A stretch of 64,000 nucleotides of DNA from Chiloscyllium plagiosum (taxonomy: Eukaryota): assembly GCF_004010195.1 (NCBI RefSeq), contig NC_057726.1, positions 61,834,335 through 61,898,334 on the forward strand, read 5' to 3'. The position numbers and the translations under genes are program-made. Below the pieces are notes generated by a model, which worked only from the letters and a program-made list of their open reading frames with translations, made no database searches and had not been told where the DNA came from. Of this stretch, positions 29,398-64,000 are shown piece by piece; within the stretch, counting starts at the first letter, position 1; each line of letters starts with the position of its first letter.

Positions 29398-29511
29398 GAA
29401 AAAATTCTTTATGACTGGATCAATCCAATTTACCTAGATGTTTCAACTCAAGCCCACATCCAAGAAGAGTTTGAGGAGGAATCAGAGATACTTCTGAAGA
29501 ATTTTTTCAAG
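29398..29511 (+). CDS. OGFOD1: OGFOD1 exon 8
   Basis: tttcag| EKILYDWINPIYLDVSTQAHIQEEFEEESEILLKNFFK |gtgaaa. Confidence 0.96.
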
Positions 29512-31082
29512 GTGAAAATTTTTGGGATTGATTTGGTAGAAAGGCAAGAACCCTTGTAAAAATGTATGTGTGGCCTGTACAGTAAAATGGACATGTTTTA
29601 GTGTCGTTTGCAATGAGGTAAATTCCATGTTTGTTCAGATATTGGTGTGAGGTGTCCAATTTTATTCAGAGTTGATTTATTTTTATACAATGTTTGTCAC
29701 TTATAGTTGTGATATATTAATTTTAAGAGTCTAATCTTGTGGGGAAGGTGAGGATGCTAGATTTTGACCAAAGTTGGCACTGGAATTGGAGAAGTATAGA
29801 CACTGAAAGCTAGACTGGCATTTGGAAACTAACTGTCCAGTCAAGAAGGCTGTAGTAAACATAAGACTGAAGGGTGAAGACTGCCCCAGGATTGTAAAAT
29901 GAAATGCAGGAGCATTCTTCTGTTCAGATCAAGCAAGGAGACTCACTGAAGTAGACTAGGGTTCATTTATAGGTATTCTTATTTGAAACTGCATTGTATG
30001 ATTTTAAAGTAAACCAACTTTTTTCAAACTTATTGAATTGCATGGGATTGCTAAGGTGTTTGAAGCAATTTTTGCCTCAGCCAGATTAATTTGGTACATC
30101 TTCAGAGAAAGTGAAGAAATACACATGTGAGGTGGATTCTATTGTTACAATTCTTAGTCCTGCACCATAGGACTAGTTATTGCACAGTATGTGCCCAACT
30201 CCTTGAAAAATAATGTGCTCAGATCACTTGCAGGAGTAAAATCTGATAAAAGGAATGTTGCAGTATCAAATTCATAAGGAGCTCAAAGAAAAGTTGCCAT
30301 TCTTTAAATTACCATTATGGAGTCATAAGAGTTGCAAATTGTCGAATGCACTGGTTGTGATCTTGCCTGTATTTCTGCTTCTGTAGATCAGTTTACTTAG
30401 AAAGAATTTGCATTAACACAGCACCTTTCCTGATCACAGAATAACCCAAAGTACTCCCAGCTGATCAACTGTATTCAGTTGATACCACAGATATGAGCCG
30501 TGCACTATTCTTGTCTCAGCTTGATGCCCAAAAGGCAGTTCTGTCCCAGTGTGCCACAGCTTCATCATGGGAAGGTAAAAAGGCAGGTACTGAATCCATC
30601 TTAACTGGAGTGGGGATTGAACCCCATGCTATTGGCACTAGTGGAATCCACACTGGGTGTCTAACTAACTGACCCAACTGGCCCTCAAGGAGTGTGAGTT
30701 GCTGTGGCAAAATATATCTTTATGTGCATATTGAATCCTGCACCAATGGATAATGACCACCAAGGCTCCAATTTCTTTGCATCACATACCTGACCAGAAA
30801 TATTATTGTTTTACTGTATGCAATTGGTGTCTGTTATGAGAATTAACAAGGTGACATTCAATTTGTTAGCTCAGTTGTGAACACCGCTTCAGTGGCCACC
30901 AAGTCCTGATGTGGATCTTGAGTCTGGAACGTCTGGTTCAGAAGCAGGGGCACAATCCACTGCCCCATTGATGTGCTCTTCAATGGAGTAGATGGTTTAT
31001 TTTCTCGAATGACGCACCATAGCAATGGACTAGAATGACTGTTAGCACCCTGTAACTGTTACATTTTCCTCCACTTACGTAG

Positions 31083-31162
31083 AAAGAAACATTTCAGATG
31101 GTTTGTGAGGCTTTGCAAGGCTCAGAGATTAAATGGAAGAGAAGAGGACCTGCCAACAAGAG
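31083..31162 (+). CDS. OGFOD1: OGFOD1 exon 9
   Basis: acgtag| KETFQMVCEALQGSEIKWKRRGPANKR |gtgagt. Confidence 0.95.
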
Positions 31163-32534
31163 GTGAGTGAATCAAAACTCTGAGAACATTAGCACTTATT
31201 GACATTGGAGCTGTAAACTGATTAAAGGCCCAGTTAACCAGCAGTTCGTGTTGAGAAAAAGCATCGGTGGAGCAGATGCAACAGTAAATTTCTGTAATCT
31301 TCCATTTTACTAACAAATTCTGGAGGTCTAAACCTGGAAAAGGAAAGGACAGCACTGTTGCACTACTTCCTTGTTTTAGGAAACAAAACATTGTTTGCAG
31401 AACAGCATAAAAATGCAAAACCATTAAATGTTTCAATTTCAATTTCAAACACATTTTTTCCCCATGTAAAGCACATGGGATTCACAGGCCTTGCTAGTAG
31501 GTTTGTCAGATTGTATAATGGGCTTGCTTTCTCCTTTCATTCCTCGCAAAAGTATGAGTGAGGAATTCTATATGATTGTACAAGTGAGGACTATTTGTAT
31601 GGGAGGTGTTTTTGTAACCCACTACCTCACTCTGAATTATTTGAATCTTTAACAGATCTGATGGGAAGAAAACTCAAGCTTTTGCATACACAGCTGGGTT
31701 GTGGTGGGGAACTTACATATTTCCACCTGTCTTTTCAAAGAAAAGTCATATCACTGTGTTGTAGTTCATATCGTGCTTGAGGAACCTTTTTATCTTACCA
31801 TTTGGTCTGTCATGATAATATGATATTCTGGTTTATTTGACAAACAGACATTGACAGCCATGAAAATTAAACTTTCCTTTTTGACCTTAGGCTGGCATCT
31901 TGTTCTGTTTGGGTTCATAGAATCATACAATGCAGAAGAGGCCTTTCAGCATTGATCTTCAACCGAATCCCACTTACCAGCACTTGTCACATATTCTTGA
32001 ATGTTTTGATGCGCCAAGTACTCATCCAGGATGTGAGGCCATTTGCCTTTGCCACCCTCCTAAGCAGCGTGTTCCAAATCATCATCAACCTCTGAGTAGA
32101 AATCTTTTTCCTAACATCCCTCCAAAACCTGTGGATCCTCAACTCGAACCTGGCTGTGGAGATAGTCTTCCCCTTTTGTTCTCTCTCTTGATTCTGCCTC
32201 CTTTTTTGCCATAGTCTGACATGCTTACGGTCTGACTGGTAATTTATGCCCATATTCATTGGATTTCAACTAAAGGCTTAGCGTCAGCTTGCTTCTCTGC
32301 CATCGTATACATGAAATGTCCTTCTAATGTTAAATTATGTCAACAGAACTTTCAATACTTCAATGTTATGTGAAGCCTAAGTGATATTGAAGTATATTGC
32401 AGACCTCAGAACAGTGACAGATTCCACTGTACCACTAAGATAGGTGACCGTCTTTGTATTGAAATGCTGCTATCTGGTTCTGTTACTTCCCAAGTATATG
32501 ACTCGTAATGTGGTATTATGTCTTTATTTTATAG

Positions 32535-32842
32535 ATGCTATGATCAAGCAGAGGAAGATAGCCTCCCTGACATTCTTGCCAAATGTATGGAGCTGTTTTC
32601 CTCTGAGGCCATGTTCCTGCTTCTGTCCAATTTTACTGGCTTAAAACTGCATTTCCTCGCAGCCTCCAGTAATGATGCAGATGAGCAGGAGAGTGAAATA
32701 GAGGAACGTGATGGCCATGAACATGTATGTTCTAGCATTGAGAAAAGAAACAAATGTAATTCAACAGAGCGTAAAGATGACACAAATGAGGGAGAAGATG
32801 TTAAACCAAAGAAAATTGAGGATCCAGGGGAGAGTTCCAAAA
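32535..32842 (+). CDS. OGFOD1: OGFOD1 exon 10
   Basis: ttatag| [42 protein letters not shown] plus acidic linker |gtaagt. Confidence 0.95.
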
Positions 32843-33771
32843 GTAAGTTTCACTGAAAAACGTTCTGAACTCTAGTAGATGAATGATTGATATTAGAGGA
32901 TCAGAAATAACATATGAATTCATTTGTAAATAATTTCACTAAAATGATCGTATTAAATTTCTGATTTTAGATGCCTGCATTCACGAATTCAAAATTGAAT
33001 GTGTCACTGGATGGCTTAATATGAATTAGATAAGGTGTTCCAGAGGCGTAAATGCCATGTCCTGGTGTAGTATTGAATAGTAGAGATCAGTCCTTCGACA
33101 TGACGTGCAGGAATTTACAGATCTGGTGAGGCTTTTGCAGACATTGAGGAAAATATTCACCTGATCTACATTTTGGGAAGCAGACAGCATTGGGCACAAC
33201 AGCGATTTTTGCATTCGTGCCTGTATTACTCACCACTCACTGTTTGTTTTATATTCAACACCTGTCCTGGAACTGTTCCTAACAGCATTGAGGGTGTAAT
33301 CACACTGGATTAATTACACGAGTTCAAAAGGATGGCTCATCTCCAGTTACTCAACAGTAATTATAGAAGACCAGCAAATGTTGGCCTTGCAAGTGTTTCT
33401 CATAGCCTATGAAAGATTTTTTTTTTAAAAGAGTTTGCATGGGCTAGTTTAATATTGACCCTAGTGCTTCAGACATCAATCTATGATTAGGTGAGGTCAT
33501 GGTGTATTCAAGTCATAACTGGGTGCTTCTTTGGAGTTGGTCTTAGTCTGAAGCAAAAATGAGCAAAACATTGAGATTACATACCACATGGTTTGATTTC
33601 AATTTGCAGGTAGGGTGAATGGCTAACTTTATGGGCTGAATAGCCTACTCCACTTCCTATGTTCCGAGGAGGAGAACAAAAGGCATTAAAAAGGGAACTG
33701 ATTAGGGAAGATAATGGTGTCAGAGGTGTGCAGATGCTAGTGAGAACCTAACAAAGTGAAATTAGTTTTGG

Positions 33772-33976
33772 GAGAAAGGGAGGACTGCAGATGCTGGAGA
33801 TCAGAGTCAAAAAGTGTGCTGCTGGAAAAGCACAGCCGGTCAGGCATCATCTGAGGAGCAGGAGAGTCGACGTTTTGAGCAAACGCTGACATTCCTGATA
33901 AAGAGCTGGAAACATCAACTCTCTTGCTCCTCAGATGCTGCCTGACTGGCTGTGCCTTTCCAGAACCACACCTTTT
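33772..33976. mobile_element. Fold-back PLE pLTR micro-element
   Basis: ctggaaaagcacagccggtcaggcatcatctgaggagca and its inverse; imperfect 14-bp TSD gaaattagttttgg / gaagtttgttttgg. Confidence 0.75.
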
Positions 33977-34292
33977 GAAGTTTGTTTTGGTGTTGAGCTG
34001 CTGGGAATGTCTATTGGGCCTAATAGCCCAGCAGCACCTTGGAAATTTATTTCTCAGATGCAGTCATTTGCGTTGGCCATGTCAAGGAACTGTGCCAATG
34101 TTTCCAGATGTTTGGGAGGTTGTTGGGGGTGGGGATAGAGAGAGGAGTTTTGGTGCTTAAGAAAGCTATATGTATAAAATATCATAATTCACTATAATTA
34201 AAAGTATCAGGTCAAATAAAGGTATGGTTTTTCACTATCTGAGAAGCATGAATTAAAACTTTGAAGGAACTTTGTGTGTCTGTCCTTCTCAG

Positions 34293-34421
34293 ATCCCATT
34301 CTTCCTGTTTGCCGAGGGGAATTGCGATATTGGAGAAATGGGTACTACACACTTATCCATGATACCAATGTGGAAAATTCGGAGTTTGCTCTTGATTTGC
34401 TGTTGTACTGTGGGTGTGAAG
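34293..34421 (+). CDS. OGFOD1: OGFOD1 exon 11
   Basis: tctcag| [42 protein letters not shown] |gtagga. Confidence 0.96.
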
Positions 34422-34563
34422 GTAGGACTTGATGGTTTCATTTTATCAAAATCCATTGCGAACCCACTTGCTTTTATTTTGAAGAAACATCTCATCAATA
34501 TGAGAGGCAGAACTAAATTGGCAAAAGACATAAATCGAAATACAGGGTAAAGAATAAACAATA

Positions 34564-34750
34564 CAGGTCATTCTACTATAACGCGCATTTCTTCAGCACA
34601 AATCGGCTATAACGTGATTGACAAACCGTGGATGTTGTTTGGATACTGAAGGGGTATAGTGATTTTCAGTTATTGATCTTCTACAGTGTGATTTTCTATA
34701 ACATGAGGTTGCAGAAGAATGCAACTGTTGCATTAGAGCAGAATGACCTC
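34564..34750. mobile_element. Tc1/mariner (Tigger/pogo-like) MITE
   Basis: ta|caggtcattctactataacgc ... gcattagagcagaatgacct terminal inverted repeats. Confidence 0.55.
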
Positions 34751-37700
34751 TCATCAATTCCACTTTTGTTGAGGTATGGCTAATCCATGTGGATTTAGTA
34801 CTTCAGTGGACCCATTCTAATGAGTTGCATCTTCTTTTGCTCTAACATGTACATTTACCTTGTTTTTCTTGAGACTTATTAATTGTTACTGTGTGAAAAT
34901 TCATGGCAGATGCATCTGTGTACTTTCCATTTCTAAGTTACATTAGTGAACCTGTATTGAATCAAAAGCCCTCATCCACGTACTCCACGCTGAATCTGTG
35001 CTAAATAATATCCATGACTTGGGAGATGGGAGAATATAGGAGACTGTGGGTCAGTCTTCAAAACTTCAAGGTTAAGATGAATAGTTCTCTGTCTAGCAGT
35101 ACATTTTACGTAACTATCATTTTTACAGTGTCATTGTGAAAGCGCCAAACATGTCAAACATTTTATAAAAAGAGAAACGACATGAATTTATGATTGTTGT
35201 TAGGAAAACCTTCTTTATGCATAGTAAACAGTATATGTCAGAGGGAATTGGAGATGAACACTTTAGAATCATTTATAAGCACTTGAATGCTGAATCATGA
35301 GTAATTTAGTGTGTCTGTAAAGATAAATGAAAATGGATGAAATGACCTTCATCACTTAAGGTGGAAAAACAACTGATTGTAAGATTGCATTAAAAATGCC
35401 GAAAATTTGAAAGAAAAGCAAGTAAAATGCAGCTCATCCCAAGTCGGTTTGATCTGTGCTGTGAAAGACTTTAACAACTGGATGATGTTCTGGGTAAATT
35501 ACCACAAGTTAATTAATTTGCCTACTTATTAAGAAATTTCACAGACAATCTGATAATGAAACAATTATTTAACTTTATTGCATGCAGTGACCAAAATAAG
35601 ACCCCTCGAGTAAGCAAATTAAGTTTCACAACTCAACTTGGCTATTACCTGATTAATGGTGGAATTCAACTAAAATTCCAAACAATAGCGTCTATCTCTG
35701 GATGTATCCAGGGTTCAGTCCTGATGTAGTGTTGTTCTTTGGAGTTTTGCTACTGAAGAATCCTGGAGTTGAATACTTAGAGTACTTTCTGTTCTTCAAG
35801 TTTACTGTGTGACATTATTGATAATCTTTCAGATTCTTTCATCCACAGTATTGACTACCCATCTGGAGCCATCAAGTCTGCAACTTGCCTTCCTAACAGA
35901 AGTAGCTTCCCTGTTTCTTGTCAATTTGGCATTGACTGTGTTTGAAAACACAAATTTCTTTCAATTAACTCCTTGAATTTTTCTATAGTGCAATCTTCCA
36001 GTTAAGATGGCGACACGGTAAAACACTCCAGCTGGAGCTCCTCTGCTTGCCAGCTCCTTTTCCTTTGTCTTTTTTTCTTTATTAACCTCTTGCTGCAGTT
36101 TTTCTTGCATCTCACCCCTCCGCCCCCCCAACTTTTATCTTCCTAACGTACCCTTACTGGGGGTAATGGAGAACAGAGTCTGAGATCAGCCTAGAGCAGG
36201 AGGCGAGTCACTGTTGAAGAGCGAGCGCGAGCTGAGTCCTGGCCAGAATGGCAGCAGAGCAATTGTGGGTCGAATCCCGAAAGTGAGGTGCGGCTGGAGC
36301 CCAAAGCGGGGACCAGAGCAATTGCGGGCCGAGCCAGAGTGGGGAGTAAAGCGAGTGCAGGCCATGTCCCACAAGCAAGCCACAGCTGGAGCCTGAAGCG
36401 GCAACAGCATGAGCACGGGCAGAGTCCCAGCCGGAGCGGCAGCAGAGTGAGCATGGGCTGAGCTGGGAGCCAAATTGCAGTTGGAGTCAGGGTGGGAGCA
36501 GAGTGAACCCAGACTGGTTTGGGAGGCCAGTCCTGGACAGAGGCCAGCATGTGGAGGCACTGTGGTGCCATGTTCTGAAACTGGCAGGCATGGACTTGGT
36601 GAAAAAGGACTATAACTTGAGTATTTTAATATTCTTTATTCTCATTCTGGACTCTTTAAACTCTGGATTCCCATGCTCATTTCTTTTTTCTTTACTGTTT
36701 CAATTCTGTAACAACAGTTTCCCCATATCTTCCCCAATTGTTGTGTCTTAACCTTTATTGGTTCTGTCTCACCTGCTGAGCCCGGGTCTTTGCATTATAA
36801 TCTTGCCCAAAGCGATCATTAGGATTACCTCATTACTCTTCCACCAAATAAGGATTTACAGTTCATGTCATTCCTCTGAGCTGATCCGGTTTGAACTGTT
36901 TCCAGTCAGCACAAGACAGTGGGTGGGGCTTTGGTAACTTGAGTTCACAAGCTGCTGTTTTTCTGTGTTGTAGAAAAGTCCTGAAGAAGGGTTATGTCTG
37001 AAACATTGAGTTCTCCATCTCCTGATGCTGCCTGGCTTACTGTGTTCATCCAGTCTCCTGCTTGTCTACCTTGGATTCCAGCATCTGCAGTTTTGTTTTG
37101 TTTTTGTGTGTGAGCAGTCCCTGTCCAACATTATCAAGCAGTTTATTCATGTAACTTTGACTGCTCCTTTTCCCAGGCAAGTCAAATTGCTTTCAATTCC
37201 AATTGTCGTTGTCTCTTAACAGTTTATTCCAGGCAGAGCTTTTGCTGATTCTTTCAATCCATGAACAGTTAATAAAGTTCTGAAGGTTACGTTATCACAA
37301 TGACCTTTCATCTGAAAAGGGAAAACCGAGAAAGGTAATAGATTTTAAACCGTGAAAGTGGAGAGAGTGAGGAAAATGCCAAAAGTGTAGATCTGTGTTA
37401 ACATGAAAAACAGGAGAGAGAAAATGATAAAAAGAGATGGTGGTGCAAGGCCACTCAGTCAAATTGAAGTGGTGTGGCTAGAAGTGCAGGAACATGTGAG
37501 CAGCTGTAGTCTCATTAGGAAATCTGAGTTAAGTAAAGTAAAAATAGGACAAATAAAAAATAAATGTGTGGAATGGCTATTAATGATGGACTGATGAGCA
37601 TTTGCTTTACAAAACTAAAAGTGTGAGTAAAACAAAAGCATGCGAAATAAAATGGAACAAAATAGGTGTGCAATTGGTAGAGCTTATTGTTGACCTATGT

Positions 37701-37946
37701 TTCTCCCATTTTTAGGAGCAGGATGTTCCTGGGCTGCTGTGCAGCTGTGTATGTTGGTAGCTGCAGACCTCAAGGCCTGTCATCTGTGTGTCGTGTGCAT
37801 TGACCTGGCCAAATGAAGAAGCCTATTAAGCCTCTTGTGAGACACAGCGTTGGGGTCTTGCTGATGACTTTTGCTGATCATTCACAGGACAGTAATGAGA
37901 AACTCTTCTGTAACCCTGGTACGGGTGCTTGGCCTCTGCTAATCCT

Positions 37947-38031
37947 GAAGAAGGGCTTATGCCCAAAACGTCAATTCTCCTGCTCCTTGGATGCTGCCTG
38001 ACCTGCGCTTTTCCAGCAACACATTTTTCAG
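37947..38031 (+). mobile_element. 85-bp PLE pLTR insertion starting at the hammerhead core
   Basis: TSD ctctgctaatcct at 37934-37946 and 38032-38044; (cct)gaagaagggcttatgcccaaaacgtc. Confidence 0.8.
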
Positions 38032-38175
38032 CTCTGCTAATCCTCCCATTTACTTTTACTTTCCTTTAACTTGCTACGGTAATGGCTGTTGTCATGCCTT
38101 TAAATTGACCCTGCATTTTAATCTCTTGTCATCATCTTCTGCCCAGTGCCAGTTACTGGCCACTAAATCACTCTA

Positions 38176-38356
38176 GGTAAAAACAAGGACTGCAGATGCT
38201 GGAAACCAGATTCTAGATTAGAGTGGTGCTGGAAAAGCACAGCAGTTCAGGCAGCATCTGAGGAGCAGGAAAATTGACGTTTCGGGCAAAAGCCATTCAT
38301 CAGGAATAGAGGCAGAGTGCCTGCAACGTGGAGGCACCCTGCAGACACTCTGCTAA
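38176..38356 (-). mobile_element. PLE pLTR fragment with hammerhead motif
   Basis: Minus strand attcctgatgaatggcttttgcccgaaacgtcaa; imperfect TSD actaaatcactcta / actaaaccactcca. Confidence 0.75.
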
Positions 38357-39279
38357 ACTAAACCACTCCAGTCGGTTAGAGCCATCTTCAGTGAATATTG
38401 GGACTGATGATTGCTTCCTTACCAGGATGCAGTATGGACCCAGAAATAGTTTCAATGTCAGGATCCTAACTCCAAGAAAAATTCTTGCAGTGTAGATATT
38501 TGTTCAACATTACTGTCATTTTCTCATTTCCCATGGTAACATCTCCTGTCTCAGCCTCCAAAGGATCAACATTCGCATTTACTGACCTTTTTGGATGTTT
38601 GCAAAAGGTCTTGCTTTCTGCAATTATATCCTTGACTATCAATCTGTTTTATCAACATTTTGTTCATTGTTTACTGGTTTCTAAATCATTGCCAGTCCTC
38701 AGCCTTGTGGTATTATAAACATCTTTTAATCTGATACTGACCTTAACTTCCTAGTGATTCACAGATGATTGTTTCTTTGTTTGTTCTTGTTCTTAAATGG
38801 AATGTATTTTTCTTGAAGGTTCAGAATTGTTTCTTTGAATGTTTCCCACCATTTGTTTATTATCCTATCTTTTCATCTATTTACTCAATCAATTTTACTT
38901 CCCTCATTTTCAAATAACTGACTTTGCTTAAATTTAAGATTTTTGTTTGGGACTGGAGAATATCACACTCAAACTTCATTTGAGATTCCGAAGTAAACTG
39001 CCTGATTGCACAATATGTTTTCTAATATAACTTTATTTCTTATTGGTTCCACAATGTATTGTTCCAGGAAACAATGCAATATTAGGTATAGATTGTTTTG
39101 CGCTGTCTTCTGTGAATGTCTTGCTTCATTGTGCTGCAGTTAGTGGAGCAGAATAGTCTATTGAAAAAACAGCTGAATAATTCTCAGAGCCTGGCTTGCC
39201 TTCTTGAAACCACCATCCTTTAATAACCGTACGATCCCATTGTTTGAAAACCTGGTGGCCATCCAGCTGTCATGTTGGA

Positions 39280-40505
39280 ATTTTATGGCTGAAGAAGTTA
39301 TGAACAAAATGGATAAAGTAGAGTTGGTGGACACAGTATACTTAGATTTTCTTGGCTTAAGAGGTAAAGCACTGGCATGGATTAAAAATTGGCTAACAGA
39401 CAGGAAACAATTAGCAATAGCAGGCTGTGACTAGTGGGTATATCATGGATCAGTACTTGAATCAGCTGGTCTCAATATATTTTCATGATTGGAGGTTAGG
39501 ACCAAATGTAATATTTCCAAATTTGGGGAGGATACAAAATTAAGTGGGAATGTGTGTTTTGAGGAAGATGTAAACCAGCTTCAAGAGGACTTGGACAGTT
39601 TTAGTGAATGGGCAAGACCATGGCAAATGGAATATAATGTGGAAAAATGTGCTGTTTTCCACTTTGGTTGGAGAAACAAATTTACAGATATCATTTAAAT
39701 GGTAAGAGGTTGAAAGGTGTAGATGTCCATAAGTCACTGGAGGCTAACTTGGAACTGTGAAGAAATGTGGACTGCAGATGCTGAAGAGCAGAATCTAAAA
39801 GTGTGGCACTGGAAAAGCACAGCAGATCAAGCATATCTGAGGAACAGGAGAGTCGATGTTTTGGGCATTAGCCCTTCATTAGGAATGAACATGGAACTGC
39901 AGCAAGCAGGAAGGCTAATGGAATATCAACCAATCTTGCAAAGGCAATCTGTATATCGGAGTAGTGCAGTGTTGTTTCAATTCTGTAAGTACTTGCTTAT
40001 ACTCCACGTGGAGTACTGTGTGCTGTTTTGGTCTCCGTATGTCAGGAAACATTATTATTGTCTTAGAGGGAGTGCAACAAAAGGTCAACAGATTTGTTTA
40101 CTTTCCTATGAAGAACGATTGGGCAAAATGGGCCTGTATTCTCTAGGGTTTTGCAGATAAGAAGTGATTTCATTGAAGCCTATAAAATACTTAAAAGGAT
40201 GGACAAGGTAGATGCAGATGAAATGTTTCCCTTGGTTGGGGAGTTTAGAACCAATGAGTACAATTTAAAAATCAGAGGAATGCTGGGATGGAGATGTGGA
40301 GAAACCTTTTTACCCACAGTGTTGCAAATCTTTGGAATTCTCTACTGTGGAAGCTCAGTCTTTGTGTCTATTTAACTTAGAGATTCTTTGATTTCTGATT
40401 ATCCATTTGTACAGAATGGTAAAAGGCACTGAAGTATTTGATCAGCCATGAATGTATTAAATGATGTAGCTGGCTTGACTGGTTTTTTGCTTCTTTTTAT
40501 GTTCC
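39280..40505 (+). mobile_element. Decayed CR1 LINE RT/3' end with a nested pLTR insertion (about 39758-39888)
   Basis: VYLDF, ISKFGEDTKL, WQMEYNVEKCAVFHFG, HVEYCVLFWSP. Confidence 0.8.
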
Positions 40506-40573
40506 CAGGAGGAAAATAGAAGGCATCAAAAAAGGAGCTGAAAGTTACCATGCATCTTTTTTTTTCGTTTCAG

Positions 40574-40632
40574 GCTGGAATGAGGAATTTGGTGGTGTTA
40601 CTTCATACATTGCTAAAGGAGAAGATGAGGAG
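40574..40632 (+). CDS. OGFOD1: OGFOD1 exon 12
   Basis: tttcag| GWNEEFGGVTSYIAKGEDEE |gtacgc. Confidence 0.97.
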
Positions 40633-40754
40633 GTACGCTCTATTTTTGTTCAATTTCAAATCGGTGAAGAATGGAAGTAACAGCTTATAATTACATAAGT
40701 TCATGATCTCTGGATGCTCTGCGGCCCTTGCAATCAATGCAATGAGTTTTAAAG

Positions 40755-40990
40755 GAACTCACAGTTGTAATGTAGAAAAACCTATTTGTGCACAGCAACT
40801 CCCAAAAACAGTAGTGACAACAGCCAGACTTGGAAATTTTGGTTGAGGGATAACTATTTTCCGGAACTCCCCTACTATTTTTCAAAATGTTGCGATGAAG
40901 TATTTTATATGTACGTGAGAAGGTAGCCAGAAAACAGCTCCTATGATATGCGGTAGTCCCTCGGTATTGCACAGAAATTTGCCTGGCGTG
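40755..40990 (-). mobile_element. Old Deu-domain-type SINE fragment
   Basis: gttgtaatgtag...tttgtgcacagcaactccca...gttgagggataa...ccctcggtattgcac pattern recognised from deuterostome SINEs. Confidence 0.45.
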
Positions 40991-41804
40991 CCTCTACATA
41001 TCATGTGGGAGATGATGGTGGAGTGGTGAAATTGATGAAATTGTAAGATCCCTAAAGGTAATCCAAGATAAATGCTAACCTGGGCAATGTGGGGTCCCAG
41101 AATTGTAAGAACAATGGATTATTTTCTTAACTTTCTCTGTACTTGTGTTGGATTGTAATTGATACAAAATTAATAAGATGAAATAGACAGGTTGCCCAAG
41201 TAACAGTTAGTAATAGCAAAAAGCAGACCTCTGTTCAGCCTAGTCATTCTGCATTTATGGCAATTAAAACAATCAGTTTTTTCATTTGAGTTGGGAACTG
41301 TAAGGCAGCTAATGAGTAGATGACACTAATCAGTGATGGTAAACCTATCCTTTCTAGTGGAAAATGTGGGCTTGCATAAAGGGTCTTTAAACATCCGTGG
41401 CACATTAACAATTTGGGTTGGAAGAGTGGTTGTCTGTAAGTATTGTAAATTAGTCCCTAAATTGAGTTGCAAGATTCCAAATGTCATTATCAAATCGTCG
41501 GTTTTCTAGTTATAGCTAAAGCTAAATGGTTGAGAATGGAATCATGCCACCGAAGGAGATCAAAAATGAGGCATTAATACTCCAGTAAGGGGAAGGTGCA
41601 AAATGTGGATTACTCAGCATGGTCTCAGGTGCACATACCAGCAAGGTACTAACTCTTGGCAAAATATCAAAGGCTGGGCATTGTCATATGCCTCTCATAT
41701 TGACCAGAGATCAAGTATAAGAAGGAAATGGAGGAGAAGAGGAAAAGGAGAAATGAAGTGTTAACTCAATAAAAACCTTGTTAACAGTTTGTGTTGTATT
41801 TCAG

Positions 41805-41966
41805 TTACTTAGCCTTTGCCCAGAAGACAACTCCCTGGCCTTGATCTACCGAGATAAAGAAACGCTAAAGTTTGTGAAACACATTAACCAGCGAAGCATC
41901 AGTCAGTGTAAGAAGACGCATGAGACAAAGGGATTCTGGGACTTTAACTTTGTGTATTATGAATGA
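41805..41966 (+). CDS. OGFOD1: OGFOD1 exon 13 (last coding exon)
   Basis: tttcag| [31 protein letters not shown]...[11 protein letters not shown] matches the human C-terminus (GFWDFSFIYYE). Confidence 0.97.
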
Positions 41967-54315: not shown

Positions 54316-54528
54316 GCCGTTATTTCTGCTTCCAATACACACAGTGGGCTGTAGATCTTGCCTACCAACACAGCATTGAAACCGCAAGATTGCAAGCGTG
54401 ACAGCGAACGATTGCACTTCACATGAGCTCGAGAGAGTGGAAAGAATAGTGACCACCCTCTCCCTGCCGTCCCGCTCAAACCAGCCGGGGGTGTGGTGCT
54501 CTGTTGGAACTCGGCTCCAAATGCCAGT

Positions 54529-54583
54529 ATGTCTCGGGGAACAGAACTTCTCCCCATACTCATCCTGGTCCTTTCTTGCACAG
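54529..54583 (+). CDS. IgSF VJ-C1 gene exon 1 (signal peptide)
   Basis: MSRGTELLPILILVLSCT hydrophobic leader, A at -3, phase-1 donor G|gtacgt in frame with the next exon. Confidence 0.85.
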
Positions 54584-54860
54584 GTACGTGTTTTCAATTC
54601 AACTATCGCTACATTTAAGAAATTATAATTAATACACGCAAAATAATCAGTATATCTCTTTTTTTCACTTCTCTTGCTATTCATGACTGAAGTTGTTACA
54701 CATGTTATGAAGTTTCTAGCCTTACGGAAGAAGGGATATTTCACCAATCATAAACGCCGCCGGCGAGCTTTAGTTTCTTTGTCTGCTGGTACAACTTTTC
54801 CACTCGCCGCCGCCCTCCTGTAAATAAATGTTTTGTGTTTTTTTTTTGTTTTTGCAACAG

Positions 54861-55163
54861 TTACCGCTGAAGTGAAGCAATTTCTGAGTCCGCCCAATGC
54901 GACCGCAGGAGAGACCGTGACTTTTCACTGCTCGTTCCCGCTATTCCGAGATAAAAGACAAATCGCGGTGCACTGGTGGAAAGCCGGAGACCGGACGTTC
55001 TTGAGCTCGAAACAGGATTCCAGGAGAGTGTTCCAGATTGAGAGCAAAGCCAGTGCTATTCTGCGCATTAACAACGTGCGTTTTGGAGACGCTGGCGTCT
55101 ATTATTGCAGGGTGCAGGGTGAATATACTGGAAATGGAACTGGCGTACGGCTGAATGTAAACG
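54861..55163 (+). CDS. IgSF VJ-C1 gene exon 2: V-set domain with built-in J-like strand
   Basis: caacag| VTAEVKQFLSPPNATAGETVTFHC...VHWWK...LRINNVRFGDAGVYYCRVQGEYTGNGTGVRLNVN |gtgagt; canonical Cys, Trp, DxGxYYC and di-Gly J motif; phase 1/1. Confidence 0.93.
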
Positions 55164-55274
55164 GTGAGTGATCACCTCCAGCAATATAGAGGGCAGTTAG
55201 AGGGACAGGAAGGTTGAAATGAGTGGACGGCTGGGAAGGATAATGCGAGTGATTATTAATTTCTCCCTTGTTAG

Positions 55275-55442
55275 GGTACATTGAGATGCAAAGATGTGAA
55301 GGTCGGGTGGATAAGCCATGTTAAAGGGATGTGCAGATTAAAGGGATAGGATGGCGCTCTGGGTTTGGGTGGGATGCTCTTCCGAGGGTCGGTATAGACT
55401 CCATGGGCCGAGTGGCCGCTCTCCATACTGTAGGGATTCTAT
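55275..55442 (+). mobile_element. HE1-type SINE 3' part
   Basis: caaagatgtgaaggtcgggtggataagccatg...catactgtagggattctat. Confidence 0.65.
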
Positions 55443-56581
55443 AACTCAGTGTTTGATTGAACACCCGGTGTTGCAGCAGGCTATTGTATCCGGACAATGG
55501 GACCACAGCTTTCCCCGACGTTACTCAGTGGCCGCGGGAAGTCGGTGCTGCAGTGCTGAAAATTCACAGCGAAAAGCTGAACTCGGGCAAATCGAGGTGA
55601 GGCGTGAACCAACAATTCCGGGTTAAGGAAGCCTGCACCTTATCCATTAGCCCACTGCGACCACCAAAAAACTGAACTTTCGGCAATTGTCAGCAGGGTT
55701 CAACAAGCGACCGCACGCTTCTGTTTTAATTGCTGTTTCGAAATCTTTTACTGCATGAAATCAAATGCATTTTCAAAATGTACATTTCACAGTCTCCCCT
55801 TTGTTAGATTTCGCATCACTATCTGAGTATCACATTATCATTCACCTTCCATCCAGTGAAATCGCGAATTTATTCTCTAATATCCTCTACATGGGAATAA
55901 AATCTGCGAGTTTCGGATACGGTTCAATCTTTTCACTGCTAATTTCTTGCCGGGGATTTCCGAAATGAAAATCCCGGACTTGCCAACACCAAAGCGGGTT
56001 GGAATTTAAAAAAAAAACTTTTGCTGGCCAATTTCAATCATTTGTGCAAGGAAAGTTGCAACATTTTCTGCAGATTGGGGTTTGGATATATTTGCCCGCG
56101 TTGAGTTACACTGTGCTGCATCTTAACTCGTCTGCATGAGATGGTGAAAAATTCACAGCTTTTGTCCAAAACCTATTGTTAGAGGCACTGTGAGGCCGTT
56201 ATCTAAACCGGTTCGGGGTTAAACATATCTGAATAATATGGCGCGGGAAGGTGAAGAATGTTCGACTTTACAAGGTACGGTGGAGAGATTTTCTTCTCGT
56301 GACAGTCGAAACCAGTTAAGATTTTCTTTTTTTTTCTGGTTGGGTATGTGGAGCGAAATGATTGGTTTCTTTTTGAACGAGTTATTGCAACTGGTCAACG
56401 AGATCATTCTCACGAACTCCTCAATGTAAACGCGCTCGGGAATCGGAAGGAGTTTCAAAGTAATTGCAACCAGATTGTGGTATTCCTCCGACCTTAGTCA
56501 TTGCTCGACTGTCGAACATCAGGCACCGACTATATGGATTGTATCTGCCGCACATCTGTTTTGATTTCATTTCTTTTTTAA

Positions 56582-57024
56582 CCGAGCTTTGTAACTTGGC
56601 GCAGGAACCCAGCATGGCCCATTTTACACAAAGGCTTAGAATTCAGATACTGTTCATACAGGAAAAAATGTAATAGCGATTGTGTGTCCACTTTGCATCT
56701 CTGCCAGATTGTATTATCATTGAGATTATCCTTTTAACACAACTGTTTTGCACCACTTCAGAATCTCCTGCAGCGGTCCTTGCCTGTTGCGAGTAGGCGC
56801 AGTTTCTTTAATAATTCGCTGTAACAGTTGAGCGCCGCCGGAGGACATTCTGAACTGGTGCAATTCTCTTAAACGGATAATCTCAATTATAATACATCTT
56901 GGCAGAGATGCAAAGCGCGCACACAGAATCTCTGTTGTATTTTGGCTGTACGTACAGTAACTGAACGGTTATCCTGTGTGTAAAATGGACCATGAAGGAT
57001 CCTGCGCCAAGTTACAAATCTCGG
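56582..57024. mobile_element. TTAA-flanked palindromic MITE (piggyBac-like termini)
   Basis: TTAA|CCGAG...CTCGG|TTAA; diverged inverted arms of about 190 bp, e.g. tgtaacttggcgcagga / tcctgcgccaagttaca and ctttgcatctctgcca / tggcagagatgcaaag. Confidence 0.6.
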
Positions 57025-57028
57025 TTAA

Positions 57029-57300
57029 GGTGAGAGGGGAAAGATTTAAAAGGGACGTAATGGGGATACGTTTTAACGTAGAGGCTGTTGGCGTGTGGAA
57101 TGAGCTGCCAGAGGAAGTGGTGGAGGCGGGTACAATTAGAACATCTAAAAATCAGCTGAATAGGTATATGAATAGGAAGGGCTTAGAGGGATATAGACCA
57201 AAAGCTGGCAAATGGGACTAGATTAATTTAGGACATCTGGTTGGCATGGACGAGTTGGACCGAAGGGATTGTTTCCATGCTGTAAATCTGTATGACATCG
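57029..57300 (+). mobile_element. CR1 LINE 3' end
   Basis: VRGERFKRD..VWNELPEEVVEAGTI..GYRPKAGKWD* plus 3'UTR. Confidence 0.85.
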
Positions 57301-58479
57301 TGACTATCCAAATAGCTGTATTAAAATTATCACATTAAGAAACACTGAAACTCTAGGATTATAAATGAGATCATTCCCTCCCCAAAACACGAAGGTGCGG
57401 CTGTTAATCGGGAGTGATTGACAGTGGGTGGACCGCCCCGTGAAAAAAGGTTATGAACTGCTTCGCTTGTGGGGAATGGTCACTGGACTCGAAACGTTAA
57501 GTGTATTTTCTCTCCACAGATGTTGTCAGTCCTGCTGAGTTTCGCCAGCAATATTTCCTTTTTGTTTCAGATCTTCATCCGCAGTTCTTTGTTTTATTTA
57601 TTTGAAAGGCTTGTTCGCCACGTCTGAGCGTGTCTGTATATGGTCTAAGTGAAACGCCGATTGGTGTCAAATCTAGATAACAAATACTTCGAACCCCTGA
57701 AAAGCCAGAGATCATGACTGTCAAAATAGAATATTTAGTATCTAAGTGGTATAAACGTTTAGCCATTCAGCTTCGTGTCAAATGTACGTTCCTCCCAAAT
57801 TGTTAACAATTCAGAGCGTTCATCCCCAGCCGCTCGCTTAACCTTCGCGTTTCAAAGCTTGACCCAACTCCGGAGGAAGTGTTCAGATGAGAAGATAATA
57901 ATAGAGTAAGAAAACTCAAGGTTTGATTTTGAGACCTTGGAGCTTTAAACGTTGTTCGAATCAGCGGTCAGACTAGCTATTTAATTTGTGATCCACGCTG
58001 TTTCCGATCATTTATTATCTAAGCTAACAACCAGCTTTTTATATATAAAAAAGGAAGTTCGCTTTCATTATGAGCTGTAATATTGGTTTGGCTTAATATG
58101 CGATCACGTAACCAGCCCCAAATCCACCCTCCATTATAAACGTGGGATGTGATGAGTTTGATCCGGTTTTTAAGTTTTATCGGCAGGTTCAAAATGTAGA
58201 GTCTTCAGTTGGCGGACTCAATATTCAACCCAGTCATGGAGATGTACTGCACGGAAACAGACCCTTCGGTCCAGCTCGTCCATGTCGACAGGATATCCTA
58301 ACCTAATCTAGTCCCATTTGGTCAATATCCCTCTCAACACTTTCTATTCATTTACTCATCCAGATGCCTTTTAAATGTTGCTATTAGTCTCTATGTCATG
58401 GCTGCAAGTTAGTGTTGAAGTGAATAATGTTTTACGTTACTGAAACTGAATTGTTTATAAAAAAGAGATTCCATAGATA

Positions 58480-60310
58480 GAGCGGTGAAAATGCTCACTT
58501 AGGCGATGTTAAACATAAAGACTCAAAAGTTGATAAGGACTACCAAATAGAAGCTGGCTGGAAGCCCTTGATGCTTCCACCCCACTCTACGATTCAACAA
58601 GATCCCGCCTGATCTACACCAAAGACACCTTCATACAAAATCCAATTATCTGTCAGGCCTTGACCCAATAACCATTTATTCCCTTGGTACCCTGGGGTTA
58701 TTGATCTCAATCTTAACTACATTCAACCACTGGGCATCCACTGCCCTGAGGAAAGTGGCTGACCTTTTTTTTTCAGACACATCAGCGGGGATGTACGCTT
58801 TCTACCTTAAAATATTTTGCACGTTTCAATTCGATCAACTCTCAGTCTTCCCAATTCTGGGCAGTAAAGGATGAGTCTACTCAGTGTCTTCAAAGGACAA
58901 TTCCCTTCTTCTGTTGTAAACCTTAGTGTCCTTATTTAATTAAAAAGTCCAAAACTACACACAAAACTTCAGGCTAGAGGAATAACTACCATGGGAATAA
59001 CTTTATACTGCCCATTGTCTTTCTATGTTCTTGCTCACTCACCTAACTTGTCCATCTTTTCTCTTGCAACTTTATTGTGTTCTCTTCCCTGCTCAATTCC
59101 CCATCTAGCCTTTTTATCATCATCAAACTTGGACACTTTATATTCAATCCCCTCATCTAAATAACTAATACACATCCTTAATAGCTAAGGATCAAGTTTT
59201 GATCCTTGTGGAACCCTCTTTGCTACAGCTTGCCAAACTAAAAATCATAGAATCCCTACAGTGTGGAAACAGATCATTCAGCCCAACATGTCCACACCGA
59301 TCCTCCTAAGAACATTGCACACAGACGCATCTCTCAACCCTATAACCTTGCATTTCCTATGGCTAATGTATCTAATCTACACATTCCTGAACACTATGGG
59401 CAACTTAGCCTGGCCAAAACACCCAAGCTGCACATCATTGGCCTGTGGGAGGAAATCAGAGTGTCCAACAGAAACCCACACAGACACGGCGAATGTGCAA
59501 ACTAGACACAGACAGTCACCCAACTTTGGAATTGAACCTGGGTCCCTGGCACCGTGAGGCAGCACTGCTAAAAACTGAGCCACTTTGCTACCCTTTTTCC
59601 TAATATGTTTTCTTTCCGTCATTCAATTCTCAATCTATGCTCATATATGACATCAAATCTTATAAGTATTAAGTTAGTTTAATAACCTGCATACCACCTT
59701 TATTGAGTACATCTTGGAAATCTCAAAACAAAAACCAACCAACAACTAGAACAATCTTCCTGGTTATATCCTCAAAAAGATCTTAACAGAAGCCATTCCC
59801 TGTCATTCTATGTCAACTATGCTGAATCATATGATTTTCTAAGAGGTCTATTACCCTGCCTCTAATAATAGCATCTAGCATTTTACCTATGAATATTCAA
59901 TTATTTGGCCCTTAGCCCCTTTGTTTTATCCCTTGCCTCTTTCTTAAGTAATCAAGTTTATGTCAACTGCCTACTGATTCCTGTGAATTATATTTAATTT
60001 AAGAATTCTGAAAGAAAAAAGTAATGCATCTATGATCTGTGCTGCTATCTCTTTTAAAACTGTCTGATGCAGATTTTCAGGAACAGGGGATTAATGATCT
60101 CTTAGTCCAATAGATTTTGTACTTATATCGATTTCTTTTCATTTCCTAATTTTTACAAGACATTTGGTTGCCCATTTTTGCAGCTTTATTTTTGGCTGAT
60201 GCTGTGGAGAAATATGCATTGTATCTGTTTAATGCCTCTGTCATTTCCTCATTCCACATTATACTTCCATTTGTTTCTGCTTCCAGTAGGTCTACATTTA
60301 CATTTTCTGA
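58480..60310 (-). mobile_element. Decayed CR1 LINE
   Basis: Reverse-strand RVPQGS (tgtggaaccct), KFDDDKK and EMTEALNRY motifs. Confidence 0.6.
59245..59592 (-). mobile_element. HE1-type SINE nested in CR1
   Basis: Reverse complement of tRNA head and V-domain. Confidence 0.8.
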
Positions 60311-61643
60311 TTCCTTTCTAGAAGTCTTGTGGTGCAATGGCAGCTTCCTTGCCTCTGGGCCAGATTCTTCTGGTTCAATTTGCACTCCATGTCTTGATGG
60401 CAAGCAAAGTGCATAGCTAAGTGTATGAGCATCAACTTGTACATCCTTTCAGCACATGCCAATGAGACGCAGTAACAGCAAGAGAGATCCCTGTTCAGCT
60501 GTCAGATCACACATCCATGTGAAGGAGAGAAACCTGGAACCTCCACCATAGTTCTGTGTATGTTGCCACAGCAACTTGGCCTCTTTGTGGAATGGTTGGT
60601 TCAGTTGGCTATTGATCTGTCTGATGCCAATAGCTTTGTGTCAATTGAAATTATGTCTAGACAGGATTCAGAATCACCCTTCTTGTCATATTCATGATGG
60701 AAGTCATACTGCTGTGTATCAGACCTGTCTTCAAGCAGAAAATGCAAGAAGTAACACCTCTTTCTAACAACTTCCTACGGAAGCATTCTCAATCTCTTTT
60801 TTTTTAAATGTATCTAGCAAGTATGCTGGGATTCTTTGACCGAATCAATTTCTGGGGTCTCTTTATATCCTTATAATATCTTTCCAACTTTCATGTCTGC
60901 TGCTCATTTTAATGCTGGGCCAGCATTTACTGCCCATCCCTTGAGAAGGTGGTGGTGAGTTGCCTTCATGGACCATGGCAGTCCATTGGCATGAGTATAC
61001 CCAAAATGCCAGTGGGAGGGGGTTTCATGATTTTAATCCAGCAACACTGTAGGAAGTGCAATATATTTCACCAATGGATGGTGAATGGTTTGGAGTGGCA
61101 TTTGCAGGTAGTCTTGTTCCCAAGTATTGCTGCAATTGTCCTTTTAGATGGTAGTGGTCACAGGTTTAGAAGGTGCTATCTAAGGACTTTTGGTGAGTTG
61201 TTGCAGTGCATCCGGTAGATGGTACACATTTACTCTACTGAGCATTTGTTATGGGCGAGTGAATATTTGTGAATGTTGTGCCAATCAAGAGGAGTGCTTG
61301 GTTTTGAATGGTGTCAAAACTCTTGAGTGTTGTTGGTGCTGAAGTCATTCAGGATTATGAGATGTATTTAACCACACTCCTGACTTGTGCCTTGTCGATA
61401 GTGGGCAAACTTTGAGGAGTGAGGAAGTGAGTTACTTGGTGTAGTATGCACAGCCACTGCATTTATATGGCTCCCCTGAGCAACTCGTGCAGTGTGACCT
61501 GGAGCTGAGATGACTAATTTTCAACAAGCAGAACCATCTTCTTTTATGTTAGGTCTAACTCCAACTAGTGGCAACTTTTCCACCAAGTCCCTTTGATTTG
61601 CATATTGTTAGGGTTCCGTGATGCCAAACTGAGTCTAACATGG

Positions 61644-61888
61644 ACCAAAAGCAGAAATTGCTGGAAAAGCTTAGCAGATCTGATAGCATCTGTGGAGAGA
61701 AATCACAATTAATGTTTCAAGTCGAGTGACGCTTCATCAGATTGTTCTGTTCATGTTCTGAGGAAGGGTCACTTGACGCAAAATGTTAACTTTGATTTCT
61801 CTCCACAGATGCTACCAGACTTGCTGATCTTTTCTAGCAATTTCCATTTTGTCTCTTATTTACAGCATCCACAGTTTTTTCAGTTTTT
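61644..61888. mobile_element. Fold-back PLE pLTR micro-element (third family)
   Basis: Inverted arms with ctgaggaagggtcacttgacgcaaaatgtta and a minus-strand ctgatgaag..gaaacatt; 16-bp TSD actgagtctaa(c/t)atgg at 61628-61643 and 61889-61904. Confidence 0.8.
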
Positions 61889-62459
61889 ACTGAGTCTAAT
61901 ATGGCCTTGTTGTAAAGAGCAATCATTCTCACTTCAACTCTGGAATTCAGCTTTTTTGTCTATACTTGAACTAGGGCTGTAATGCTCGTGTTGAAGCTGT
62001 ACTGAATCAATCTTACATTTCCAGTGTTATAACATTTAGTGTAGCTTCCAAAATTGACATTAGCCACCTTATCCTCCAACCTATGTAGTTTAGCTTAAGA
62101 TTCATTTTGGATTTAACTTTCATCAAGATAAAATTGATCACTTTATGGTCGCTCTTTTCTGAAGGTTTCTTTGTTGCAAATTTATTATTTAACTGTCTCA
62201 TTTCACAATATTGCATTAAGAATAGCCTGTTGTCCAGTTGATTCATTTAGGTTAATGGAACAGGATGGAAATCTTCCAATTTGGGCGCCCAATGCTAACA
62301 TCAAAGAGTCCCACATCAGTGTCCACTAAAAAAAATTCGAAATTTCAAATTCAAATTCCATCTTTCATCATGCTTTCAGGTTATTTATCCCTAGTTTAGT
62401 GAGCAGGTCAGAGTCTAGGAATTCTGCAAAGAATAATTCATCCCCTGCCTTTTGAAAGT

Positions 62460-62920
62460 CAGACCTGTGATGGAATACTCCCCACCTACCTCAATGAGTG
62501 CAATTCCAACCACACTCTAGAAACTTGATACCATCCAGGGCAAAACAACCTGCATGAGTGGCACCACATCCACAAGAGATTCCACACAATGCTCACTCTA
62601 TAATATGTTCAAGATGCACTGCATAAATTTGCCAAACATCCTTCTGTAGCATTTGCACCACTATCTGCAAAGGCAATGGAACAATTCTACTTGCAAGTTT
62701 CTACCTAAGCCAACCACCATCCAGGATTGGAAATATATCACTGTTCCTTCTCTGCCAGTAGGGCAAAATCTGAAATTCTTTCTCTGAAATTATAGGCCCA
62801 CTTACACCTCACGGACTGCAATGGTTCAAGAAGGCAGCTCATCGCCACCTTCTCAAAGACAACTAAGGACAGCCACTAAAAGATGGCCAGCCAGCAATGC
62901 TTACATTCAACAAACAACTA
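62460..62920 (+). mobile_element. CR1-group LINE 3' end (an antisense copy lies at about 60900-61620)
   Basis: KVRPVMEYSPPT..KLDTIQGKTTC motif; ggttcaagaaggcagctcatcgccaccttctcaa 3'UTR. Confidence 0.65.
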
Positions 62921-63920
62921 AAAAGAAATACAAATGTGCACATGTTCTAGTTTGCCTAAATGAGCTGTTCCTGTACTGTAGCATGCCATGTTGGCTTTTC
63001 TATTGGGATCTTTTCTACAGTAATATATGCCAGATTTTGAAATTAGTAATGATTATTTTTGTTGAAACATATTCCAGGGGGAAAATGCTAGAATTATTCG
63101 TTTTTTTAATCCCAGAAAATTCAGCAATATAAAATAGAATAATACAATGGTTACAGAATAATGGCCATTCATCTTTGATGTCAGTGCCAGCTCTCTGCAA
63201 TAGAAATTCTCACTACCCTCCCCTGTCAGGCCTGCAATGCTTTTGTTTCTACAAATTGAAACAAATTAAATTATATACTCCATGCAAACAGCTAACATTG
63301 TGATTATCATTCTCCCTTTTCAGTTAAGAAATAATTGTGCTAAAGTAACCTGTCAGTTAGCCTGAACAATGGTTTTCACAAAACACTTCAAATAAATTCA
63401 ATTATATTATGAGTGGATATTCTCTGTGAACATTTTCACAGGCACCATTGGATAGTCATTTGAAACATGACTCATTTAACTTTCCCTACTTAGTCTCAGA
63501 GATATTTGTAATCAACCTGTTCAGAGATGTCATGACATTACTCTGGAGAAGGCAGGACTTGAACACTGGCCAATTATAATCCTACAAAGTGGCACAAATT
63601 AATCCAATGCAGACCAAAGATTGAACCAGCAAATAAATATTCGCTCAGTACATTCTTGTATAATCCACGTTTTTGTACGCATTCGTATTACACTGCAGTG
63701 TGATGCAAATACCCCAAGTTTCTATTTAATGTTCTGTCAGAATTTTTGCAACACCCAGGCTCTGAAAAGTAATTCACAATCATATCCAAAACAGCAGATT
63801 CTATGAAGCAATTGTTAGATAAAGAACAACTACACTGATGTTAAACAGTGCCCAAGGAAATGTACACTATATACGCTCTAACTTGGAAATTAAGAAGCCT
63901 TTTTTTTTATTGTTCTATAG

Positions 63921-64000
63921 CTTCTCCGCATCCTCTGAAAATTATTCCGAAGTTTTCTGCAACTGGCACTCTAACGTGTATATGTAAAACGTCTGGGTTC
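63921..64000 (+). CDS. IgSF VJ-C1 gene exon 3, start of C1-set domain (truncated by window end)
   Basis: Strong acceptor ttttttttattgttctatag|; phase 1 matches the V exon and gives ASPHPLKIIPKFSATGTLTCICKTSGF, i.e. the C1 B-strand CxxxGF(YP) motif. Confidence 0.8.

Follow-up and report, generated by a model that had tools for sequence, protein, structure and literature searches.

A conserved VJ-C1 gene of Chiloscyllium plagiosum, antigen-receptor-like in architecture, within a likely paired receptor family of cartilaginous fish

Is a gene that encodes a leader, a germline-joined VJ domain and a C1 domain necessarily close to the antigen receptors? The question is raised by a 64,000-nucleotide stretch of the Chiloscyllium plagiosum genome (G000, contig C17, 61834335-61898334; "the window" below, with positions beyond 64000 continuing its numbering). 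An earlier, sequence-only reading had proposed at its end a non-rearranging, antigen-receptor-like gene from a poorly characterised cartilaginous-fish family beside OGFOD1, related to the kind of gene that the RAG transposon may have invaded. We found that gene and family are real, and that the gene is already modelled in databases under misleading names. Judged by sequence, "antigen-receptor-like" applies to its architecture only. We lean, by a little, towards a conserved leader-VJ-C1-transmembrane (TM)-tail member of the family that is likely a monomeric adhesion molecule or self ligand, and not a signalling or antigen receptor.

The focal gene product has 323 amino acids over five exons (Table 1), and all four introns are phase 1. 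The three phase-compatible exons recognised earlier (leader, VJ and the start of C1) were confirmed in their coordinates, GT/AG ends and common frame. Past 64000 the C1 domain is completed with its YP, W and second Cys and runs into no stop or frameshift, and the full protein matches the Pfam V-set (E 6.6e-10) and C1-set (E 2.9e-14) profiles, as anticipated. Both predicted splice junctions (54583/54861 and 55163/63921) are crossed with 0 mismatches by two contigs of run X1, whose joins at 54579/54857 and 55162/63920 are equivalent placements of these junctions. These contigs are assembled and transcript-like, the identification of run X1 as RNA being the tool's guess; one contig of run X2 continues from the V exon into the intron. 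The gene is identical to two database models, P0061 with the TM exon and P0001 without it, whose name derives misleadingly from germline-joined immunoglobulin light chain (IgL, lambda). Because all introns are phase 1, skipping of the TM exon stays in frame, and TM-skipped models are present in 5 of the 14 species with an ortholog.

Table 1. Features of the VJ-C1 gene and its neighbour (window numbering, extended past 64000)
Feature	Position	Contig C17	Strand	Basis or content
5' untranslated region, minimum extent	54343..54528		+	first contig record of run X1 starts at 54343 and crosses exon 1 into exon 2
Exon 1, leader (split leader, phase 1)	54529..54583		+	GT/AG ends, translation, X1 contig junction
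Exon 2, compact germline-joined VJ domain	54861..55163		+	Cys42-Cys101, WWK C strand, CDR3 of 8 residues, Asn sequon at J Phe/Trp position
Exon 3, complete C1-set domain	63921..64217 (in window 63921..64000)	61898255-61898551	+	V/C1 junction in X1 contig
Exon 4, uncharged TM and juxtamembrane Cys cluster	68700..68813	61903034-61903147	+	skipped in frame in isoform P0001
Exon 5, tyrosine-free basic tail, invariant CxRC, stop codon	76631..76833	61910965-61911167	+	beyond the window
OGFOD1 neighbour	29401..41957		+	two C-terminal-domain exons matched (29401-29523, 41805-41957); embedded in receptor cluster

The V exon is not built for rearrangement. No site resembling a recombination signal sequence (RSS) was found within 300 bases of it by a scan whose positive controls, a split IgL V and a T-cell receptor (TCR) V, yielded a perfect RSS and an RSS with one mismatch, respectively, in agreement with the sequence-only reading and unlike rearranging Ig and TCR genes. 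The G strand does lie within the V exon as first described, but its register is N-G-T-G-x-x-L-x-V and the third complementarity-determining region (CDR3), first taken to be very short, has 8 residues. Asn110 thereby occupies the position of the J Phe/Trp, and its glycosylation sequon is kept in 14/14 orthologs. The domain has no FGxG and no WYQQ glutamine, its C strand being WWK, and it is compact: the two canonical cysteines are 59 residues apart (54-59 in the 19 parsable of 20 family exons), the spacing being 65-76 in the Ig, TCR, UrIg-like, NCR3-like, SIRP and B7H6-like rows of our alignments. A structure model of the V domain built from 50 sequences (predicted local distance difference test, pLDDT, 95.9) has no C' or C'' strand assigned, and its Foldseek matches are mixed (antibody V, VNAR, NCAM Ig1, NKp30, B7-H4). 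An earlier model (11 sequences, pLDDT 64.7) and its Foldseek matches were uninformative.

The extra cysteine of the C1 domain (the TCIC motif, Cys139), first thought to allow disulfide-linked dimers, lies two residues before the canonical C1 cysteine and aligns with a core Leu of the paralogs. Its side chain presumably faces inward, by strand alternation, and it is present in only 9/14 orthologs. Because of this core position and patchy conservation a dimer formed through it is unlikely, and we rejected that proposal on both grounds.

Trees and approximately unbiased (AU) tests separate the V domain from the antigen receptors. The V tree held 60 rows taken from a pool of 102, with one more added, the C1 tree 76 of 87 rows and the test trees 25-31, with isoform duplicates and most paralogs left out; alignments of about 100 columns limit all of these analyses, and the outgroup labels (IgL, TCR, IgH, NCR3-like, UrIg-like, CD28H-like) are our own, assigned from motifs and matches. 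Family V domains form their own group with moderate support (89/92), as do the C1 domains (87/86 and 80/81). Grouping of the family V with Ig, TCR and UrIg was rejected in three tests (p 0.006, 0.004 and 0.034), as was grouping with IgL (p 0.0005), so that the gene does not fall within a germline-joined light-chain isotype. Grouping with UrIg was rejected for V (p 0.009) and C1 (p 0.010), a comparison resting on one UrIg-like gene from contig C37. The AU test did not reject the family V with SIRP (p 0.17), NCR3 (0.30), B7H6 (0.18) or turtle multi-VJ proteins (0.26), nor in a broad clade with Ig/TCR, SIRP and C9/C45 receptors (0.19); for C1 it did not reject IgL (0.38), SIRP (0.43 and 0.29), the B7H6 region (0.41) or IgL/IgH/UrIg together (0.06).

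Germline-joined shark IgL (lambda), like the focal gene, has a joined VJ followed by one C1, but the focal gene adds a TM segment and tail and lacks FGxG and WYQQ. UrIg and UrIg2 of elasmobranchs are likewise non-rearranging and combine a split leader and a VJ in one exon with C1-type domains, but have multiple C domains, nine in UrIg2, where the focal gene has one (PMC12227049, in part); they also differ in forming dimers and in their linkage to the major histocompatibility complex (MHC) or AgRC. NCR3/NKp30 shares the joined VJ; the V model counts NKp30 among its tied structural matches, and some paralogs have an Arg in the TM segment. NCR3 itself, however, has a charged TM segment, a Cys-Cys spacing of 70 and no C1, and the focal gene has a C1 and an uncharged TM. 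NCR3-like exons are on C37, not C17.

The focal gene belongs to a large family. At least 47 V exon matches were found in the genome, 41 of them on C17 (19 at 61.5-62.3 Mb, 21 at 68.9-70.7 Mb and 1 at 57.5 Mb) and 6 on small contigs. The nearer cluster sits in a block with BBS2 (61.35 Mb), NUDT21 (61.49 Mb) and OGFOD1 (61.86-61.88 Mb), OGFOD1 lying inside it, so the family and neighbour proposed from sequence were both recovered. Our survey of the OGFOD1 region covered 802,730 of 854,000 bases. All 16 intact V exons have a joined G strand and all 16 are followed by a C1 exon; 3 further V exons are broken, and 6 intact tail exons of the immunoreceptor tyrosine-based inhibitory motif (ITIM) type and several TM exons with Arg are present. 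Only two weak RSS-like sites occur in these ~803 kb, one lying 515 and the other 707 bases away from a V end, and none at a V end. Among 32 paralog proteins of cartilaginous fish, 24 have a predicted TM segment; 15 of these 24 have an ITIM or switch-motif (ITSM) tail, and 4 pair a short tail with an Arg-containing TM segment. In paired receptor families, ITIM/ITSM forms are inhibitory and charged-TM forms are adaptor-coupled and activating. By these sequence signatures the V-C1 cluster is likely a paired receptor family. We found no paper describing it, but a description may already exist in key papers or their supplementary material. At least five automatic names are in use for its members, many of which are called NCR3LG1-like or tapasin-like.

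Outside cartilaginous fish, three word-limited searches gave only two mammalian SIRPs, one teleost VJ-C1 protein and turtle multi-VJ proteins. The turtle proteins (P0052-P0055), matched by the family profile and with four or five tandem joined-VJ domains, ITIM tails and a Cys-Cys spacing of 63, are possible tetrapod relatives. Within the shark genome, a lone family gene at C17:57.53-57.55 Mb (L002, L065, L066), 4 Mb off, shares the WWIY TM type of the focal gene and has tyrosines in its tail. Protein P0019 (entry with P0032) joins this lone gene in its V domain and a different subfamily in its C1, which suggests exon shuffling. Near-identical copies of C1, TM and tail exons, together with a second copy of a NUDT21 exon (C17 61604877/61618412, 62087424/62092243 and 61486831/61487952), are either recent duplications or assembly artefacts near gaps. 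In the 8.7 kb intron between V and C1, several high-copy repeat fragments (window 56900-62900) dominate read mapping. A CpG-rich promoter as a sign of broad expression was discarded, the paralogs being equally CpG-rich (0.46-0.96 versus 0.81 in the focal gene; background median 0.39). In the part of the single-cell marker table of PMC11372145 that was searched, no row could be assigned to the focal gene.

Against this background the focal gene stands out by what its conserved intracellular and TM parts do and do not contain. The ortholog set comprises one protein from each of 14 species, namely 11 sharks, 2 rays and 1 chimaera, all of a common TM and tail type. The TM and tail exons looked for beyond the window were found, but the TM segment is uncharged and the tail has no ITIM: neither a charged TM residue nor an ITIM/ITSM occurs in any of the 14 orthologs. 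The motif C267-x-R269-C270 (CxRC) is present in 14/14 orthologs and in 0/36 paralog proteins. Only 5 of the 67 tail positions are invariant, and C267, R269 and C270 are three of them. Rays do not retain the juxtamembrane CxC. Compared with the focal V, the V domains of the shark orthologs are 95-56% identical, that of a ray 51% and that of the chimaera 48%. None of 19 paralogs from the same genome as the focal gene exceeds 46%, so that the chimaera ortholog is as close as the nearest of them. Shark orthologs cluster in the trees (C1 support 99/99). Orthology of the ray and chimaera proteins rests on TM and tail motifs because the trees do not join them to the sharks, and we treat them as putative orthologs. 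The chimaera ortholog cluster includes an NP_ record, a record type which we take to be transcript-based.

The reading that we favour slightly, an adhesion molecule or self ligand, would work as follows. The V domain may bind as a single domain through its tip loops, because a glycan at the J position would block V-V pairing of the Ig/TCR type. Juxtamembrane cysteines are probably palmitoylated, CxRC could bind zinc or a cytosolic partner, and skipping of the TM exon would yield a secreted decoy form. The partner would be a fixed self molecule, possibly the inhibitory and activating receptors of the cluster itself. Without tyrosine-based signalling, the protein would play the part in its family that SIRP-gamma plays among the SIRPs.

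Several observations weigh against this reading. In raw single-cell runs X19 and X20, no exon coverage was seen in the 2% and 6% of reads examined, and the TM and TM-skip junctions are supported by database models, not by reads. The trees do not place ray and chimaera orthologs firmly with the shark clade. In one V tree, with nectin removed, the long-branched B7H6-like V falls inside the family; in another it falls outside. The structural matches of the V model are all tied (Z 12.0-12.9). CxRC also differs from the CxC/CxH Lck motif described for CD4/CD8 (PMC10768021, in part).

Among the alternatives, the one that survives best makes the family a B7H6/tapasin-type V-C1 ligand lineage and the focal gene a B7-like ligand for NCR3- or CD28-family receptors. 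B7H6 (NCR3LG1) has the same V-C1-TM layout and a similar C1, and hhalign gave 94% probability. B7H6 was among the few non-antibody PDB matches of the ortholog profile (E 1.3e-20), after UrIg2 and SIRP-alpha. Other PDB profile searches were swamped by multi-domain chains. The automatic names also speak for it, as do the AU tests that did not reject the family with B7H6-like domains for either V or C1 and the one tree that nests the B7H6-like V. The B7H6 locus is linked to RPS13, however, and in this genome distinct B7H6-like genes lie on C16 at 32.66-32.79 Mb, ~0.6 Mb from RPS13 (33.34 Mb), with a V that has no GxG and a Cys-Cys spacing of 69 versus 59. The C16 V exon has B7H6 as its best single-domain PDB match (E 1.2e-9), with several C1 exons alongside. 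With this separate locus near RPS13, we rejected the focal gene as the syntenic B7H6 ortholog. We know of no ITIM/Arg pairing for B7H6, and most of the paralogs carry these receptor-type signatures. We consider a B7-type ligand unlikely. The arrangement on C16 (L073, L074, L092, L101) suggests in its own right a multi-domain or multi-copy B7H6.

It is also conceivable, with a still lower probability, that the focal gene is a co-receptor that signals without a tyrosine motif, through a zinc clasp between a Src-family kinase and either CxRC or the juxtamembrane cysteines. The invariance of C267, R269 and C270 would fit, and a zinc clasp links the CxxC of Lck with the CxC or CxH of CD4/CD8 (PMC10768021, in part). 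The focal spacing, however, is CxxC, as on Lck and not as on the receptors that it clasps; rays do not retain the juxtamembrane CxC, and palmitoylation would be a simpler account of the cysteines.

Slightly more doubtful again is an extension of the self-ligand reading, in which the cluster would be a self-recognition system as old as cartilaginous fish and a genome-duplication sister of the tetrapod SIRP locus. The focal gene would then be a CD47-equivalent self marker, with a secreted decoy and a zinc-binding tail, read by fast-evolving ITIM and Arg-TM paralogs. The human 16q and 20 regions are related by duplication, and the SIRP locus is linked to NSFL1C.

The SIRP family itself is among the closest known systems. 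SIRPs have Lys as the activating TM residue, unlike the Arg of the shark activating TMs. They are V-C1-C1 proteins, whereas the shark family has one C1 in 16/16 intact cluster genes, except at two places where C1 exons are duplicated; in the skate, protein P0018 carries two near-identical C1 domains. SIRP V domains are also less compact (Cys-Cys 66 versus 59), and the family V groups with SIRP V in no tree (though not rejected, AU p 0.17, with only two mammalian SIRPs sampled). SIRP genes form clusters that encode receptors with a J-like V plus C1, some inhibitory, some activating and some non-signalling (PMC9652883, in part); the same sequence signatures are seen in the shark cluster, and the focal gene would work like SIRP-gamma as the non-signalling member of its family. 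In the ESM Atlas, SIRP-alpha clusters rank 3rd and 4th among the matches to an ITIM paralog; SIRP was not among the 50 listed matches of the V-only structure search, which excludes nothing. A camel SIRP query of the genome gave weak matches only, 6/14 of them in the C17 family (102 of 407 candidates scored). The gene taken as NSFL1C, a SEP-domain gene, is on C20 with no Ig exon in the surrounding 160 kb, the family being on C17, and the focal gene was accordingly rejected as a syntenic SIRP ortholog. The origin of SIRP itself is given as unknown in a review (PMC9652883, in part).

There is only a slim chance that the family represents, in cartilaginous fish, PRARP or a different non-rearranging V-C1 gene already described. 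PRARP is a V-C1 protein with ITIM/ITSM. It is counted among the joined-VJ genes (PMC11599192, PMC10751288, each in part), but it is placed with the VJ genes in the MHC (PMC10751288, in part), whereas the shark cluster lies in the BBS2-NUDT21-OGFOD1 block, and other VJ-C1 loci on C12 are alternative candidates. One such gene set with joined VJ and C1, distinct from the C17 family, is found at C12:44.70-44.82 Mb (L146, L147) and on C96150, and is a PRARP candidate. At C12:51.93-52.11 Mb (L071, L072, L149) at least 2 genes have a V with EIPPP in CDR3 followed by a C1 exon, one with an Arg in a predicted TM exon. EIPPP in CDR3 is a signature of CD28H (PMC11599192, in part); V-C1 forms would be unusual in the CD28 family, whose members are described as single-V. 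On C37, probably the MHC chromosome, two VJ exons of NCR3-like type and one UrIg-like gene with VJ and C1 lie at 17.62, 26.81 and 33.20 Mb (L148, L083, L075).

Finally, that the focal gene is a surviving relative of the RAG-invaded V-C1 gene, close to Ig/TCR or UrIg, is very improbable: its split leader, single-exon VJ, C1 and phase-1 introns would suit such a gene, as would the C1 and broad-clade groupings that the AU test retained, but its V is compact and without the J Phe/Trp and WYQQ Gln, the narrower V groupings and C1 with UrIg are rejected, the gene is not on the contigs holding NCR3/UrIg-like (C37) or TCR-alpha-like (C44) genes, and UrIg/UrIg2 are better candidates (PMC12227049, in part).

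The closeness to antigen receptors first proposed is thus not upheld, and the gene drops off the list of good RAG-substrate candidates. What it offers lies elsewhere. To our knowledge, few paired innate receptors have been described in cartilaginous fish, and ~45 V-C1 genes carried under at least five automatic names are a testable system. The member conserved across chimaera, sharks and rays gives the best access to the ligand of the family. If the cluster were indeed a sister of the SIRP locus with a self marker of its own, SIRP-type checkpoints would date to the base of the jawed vertebrates.

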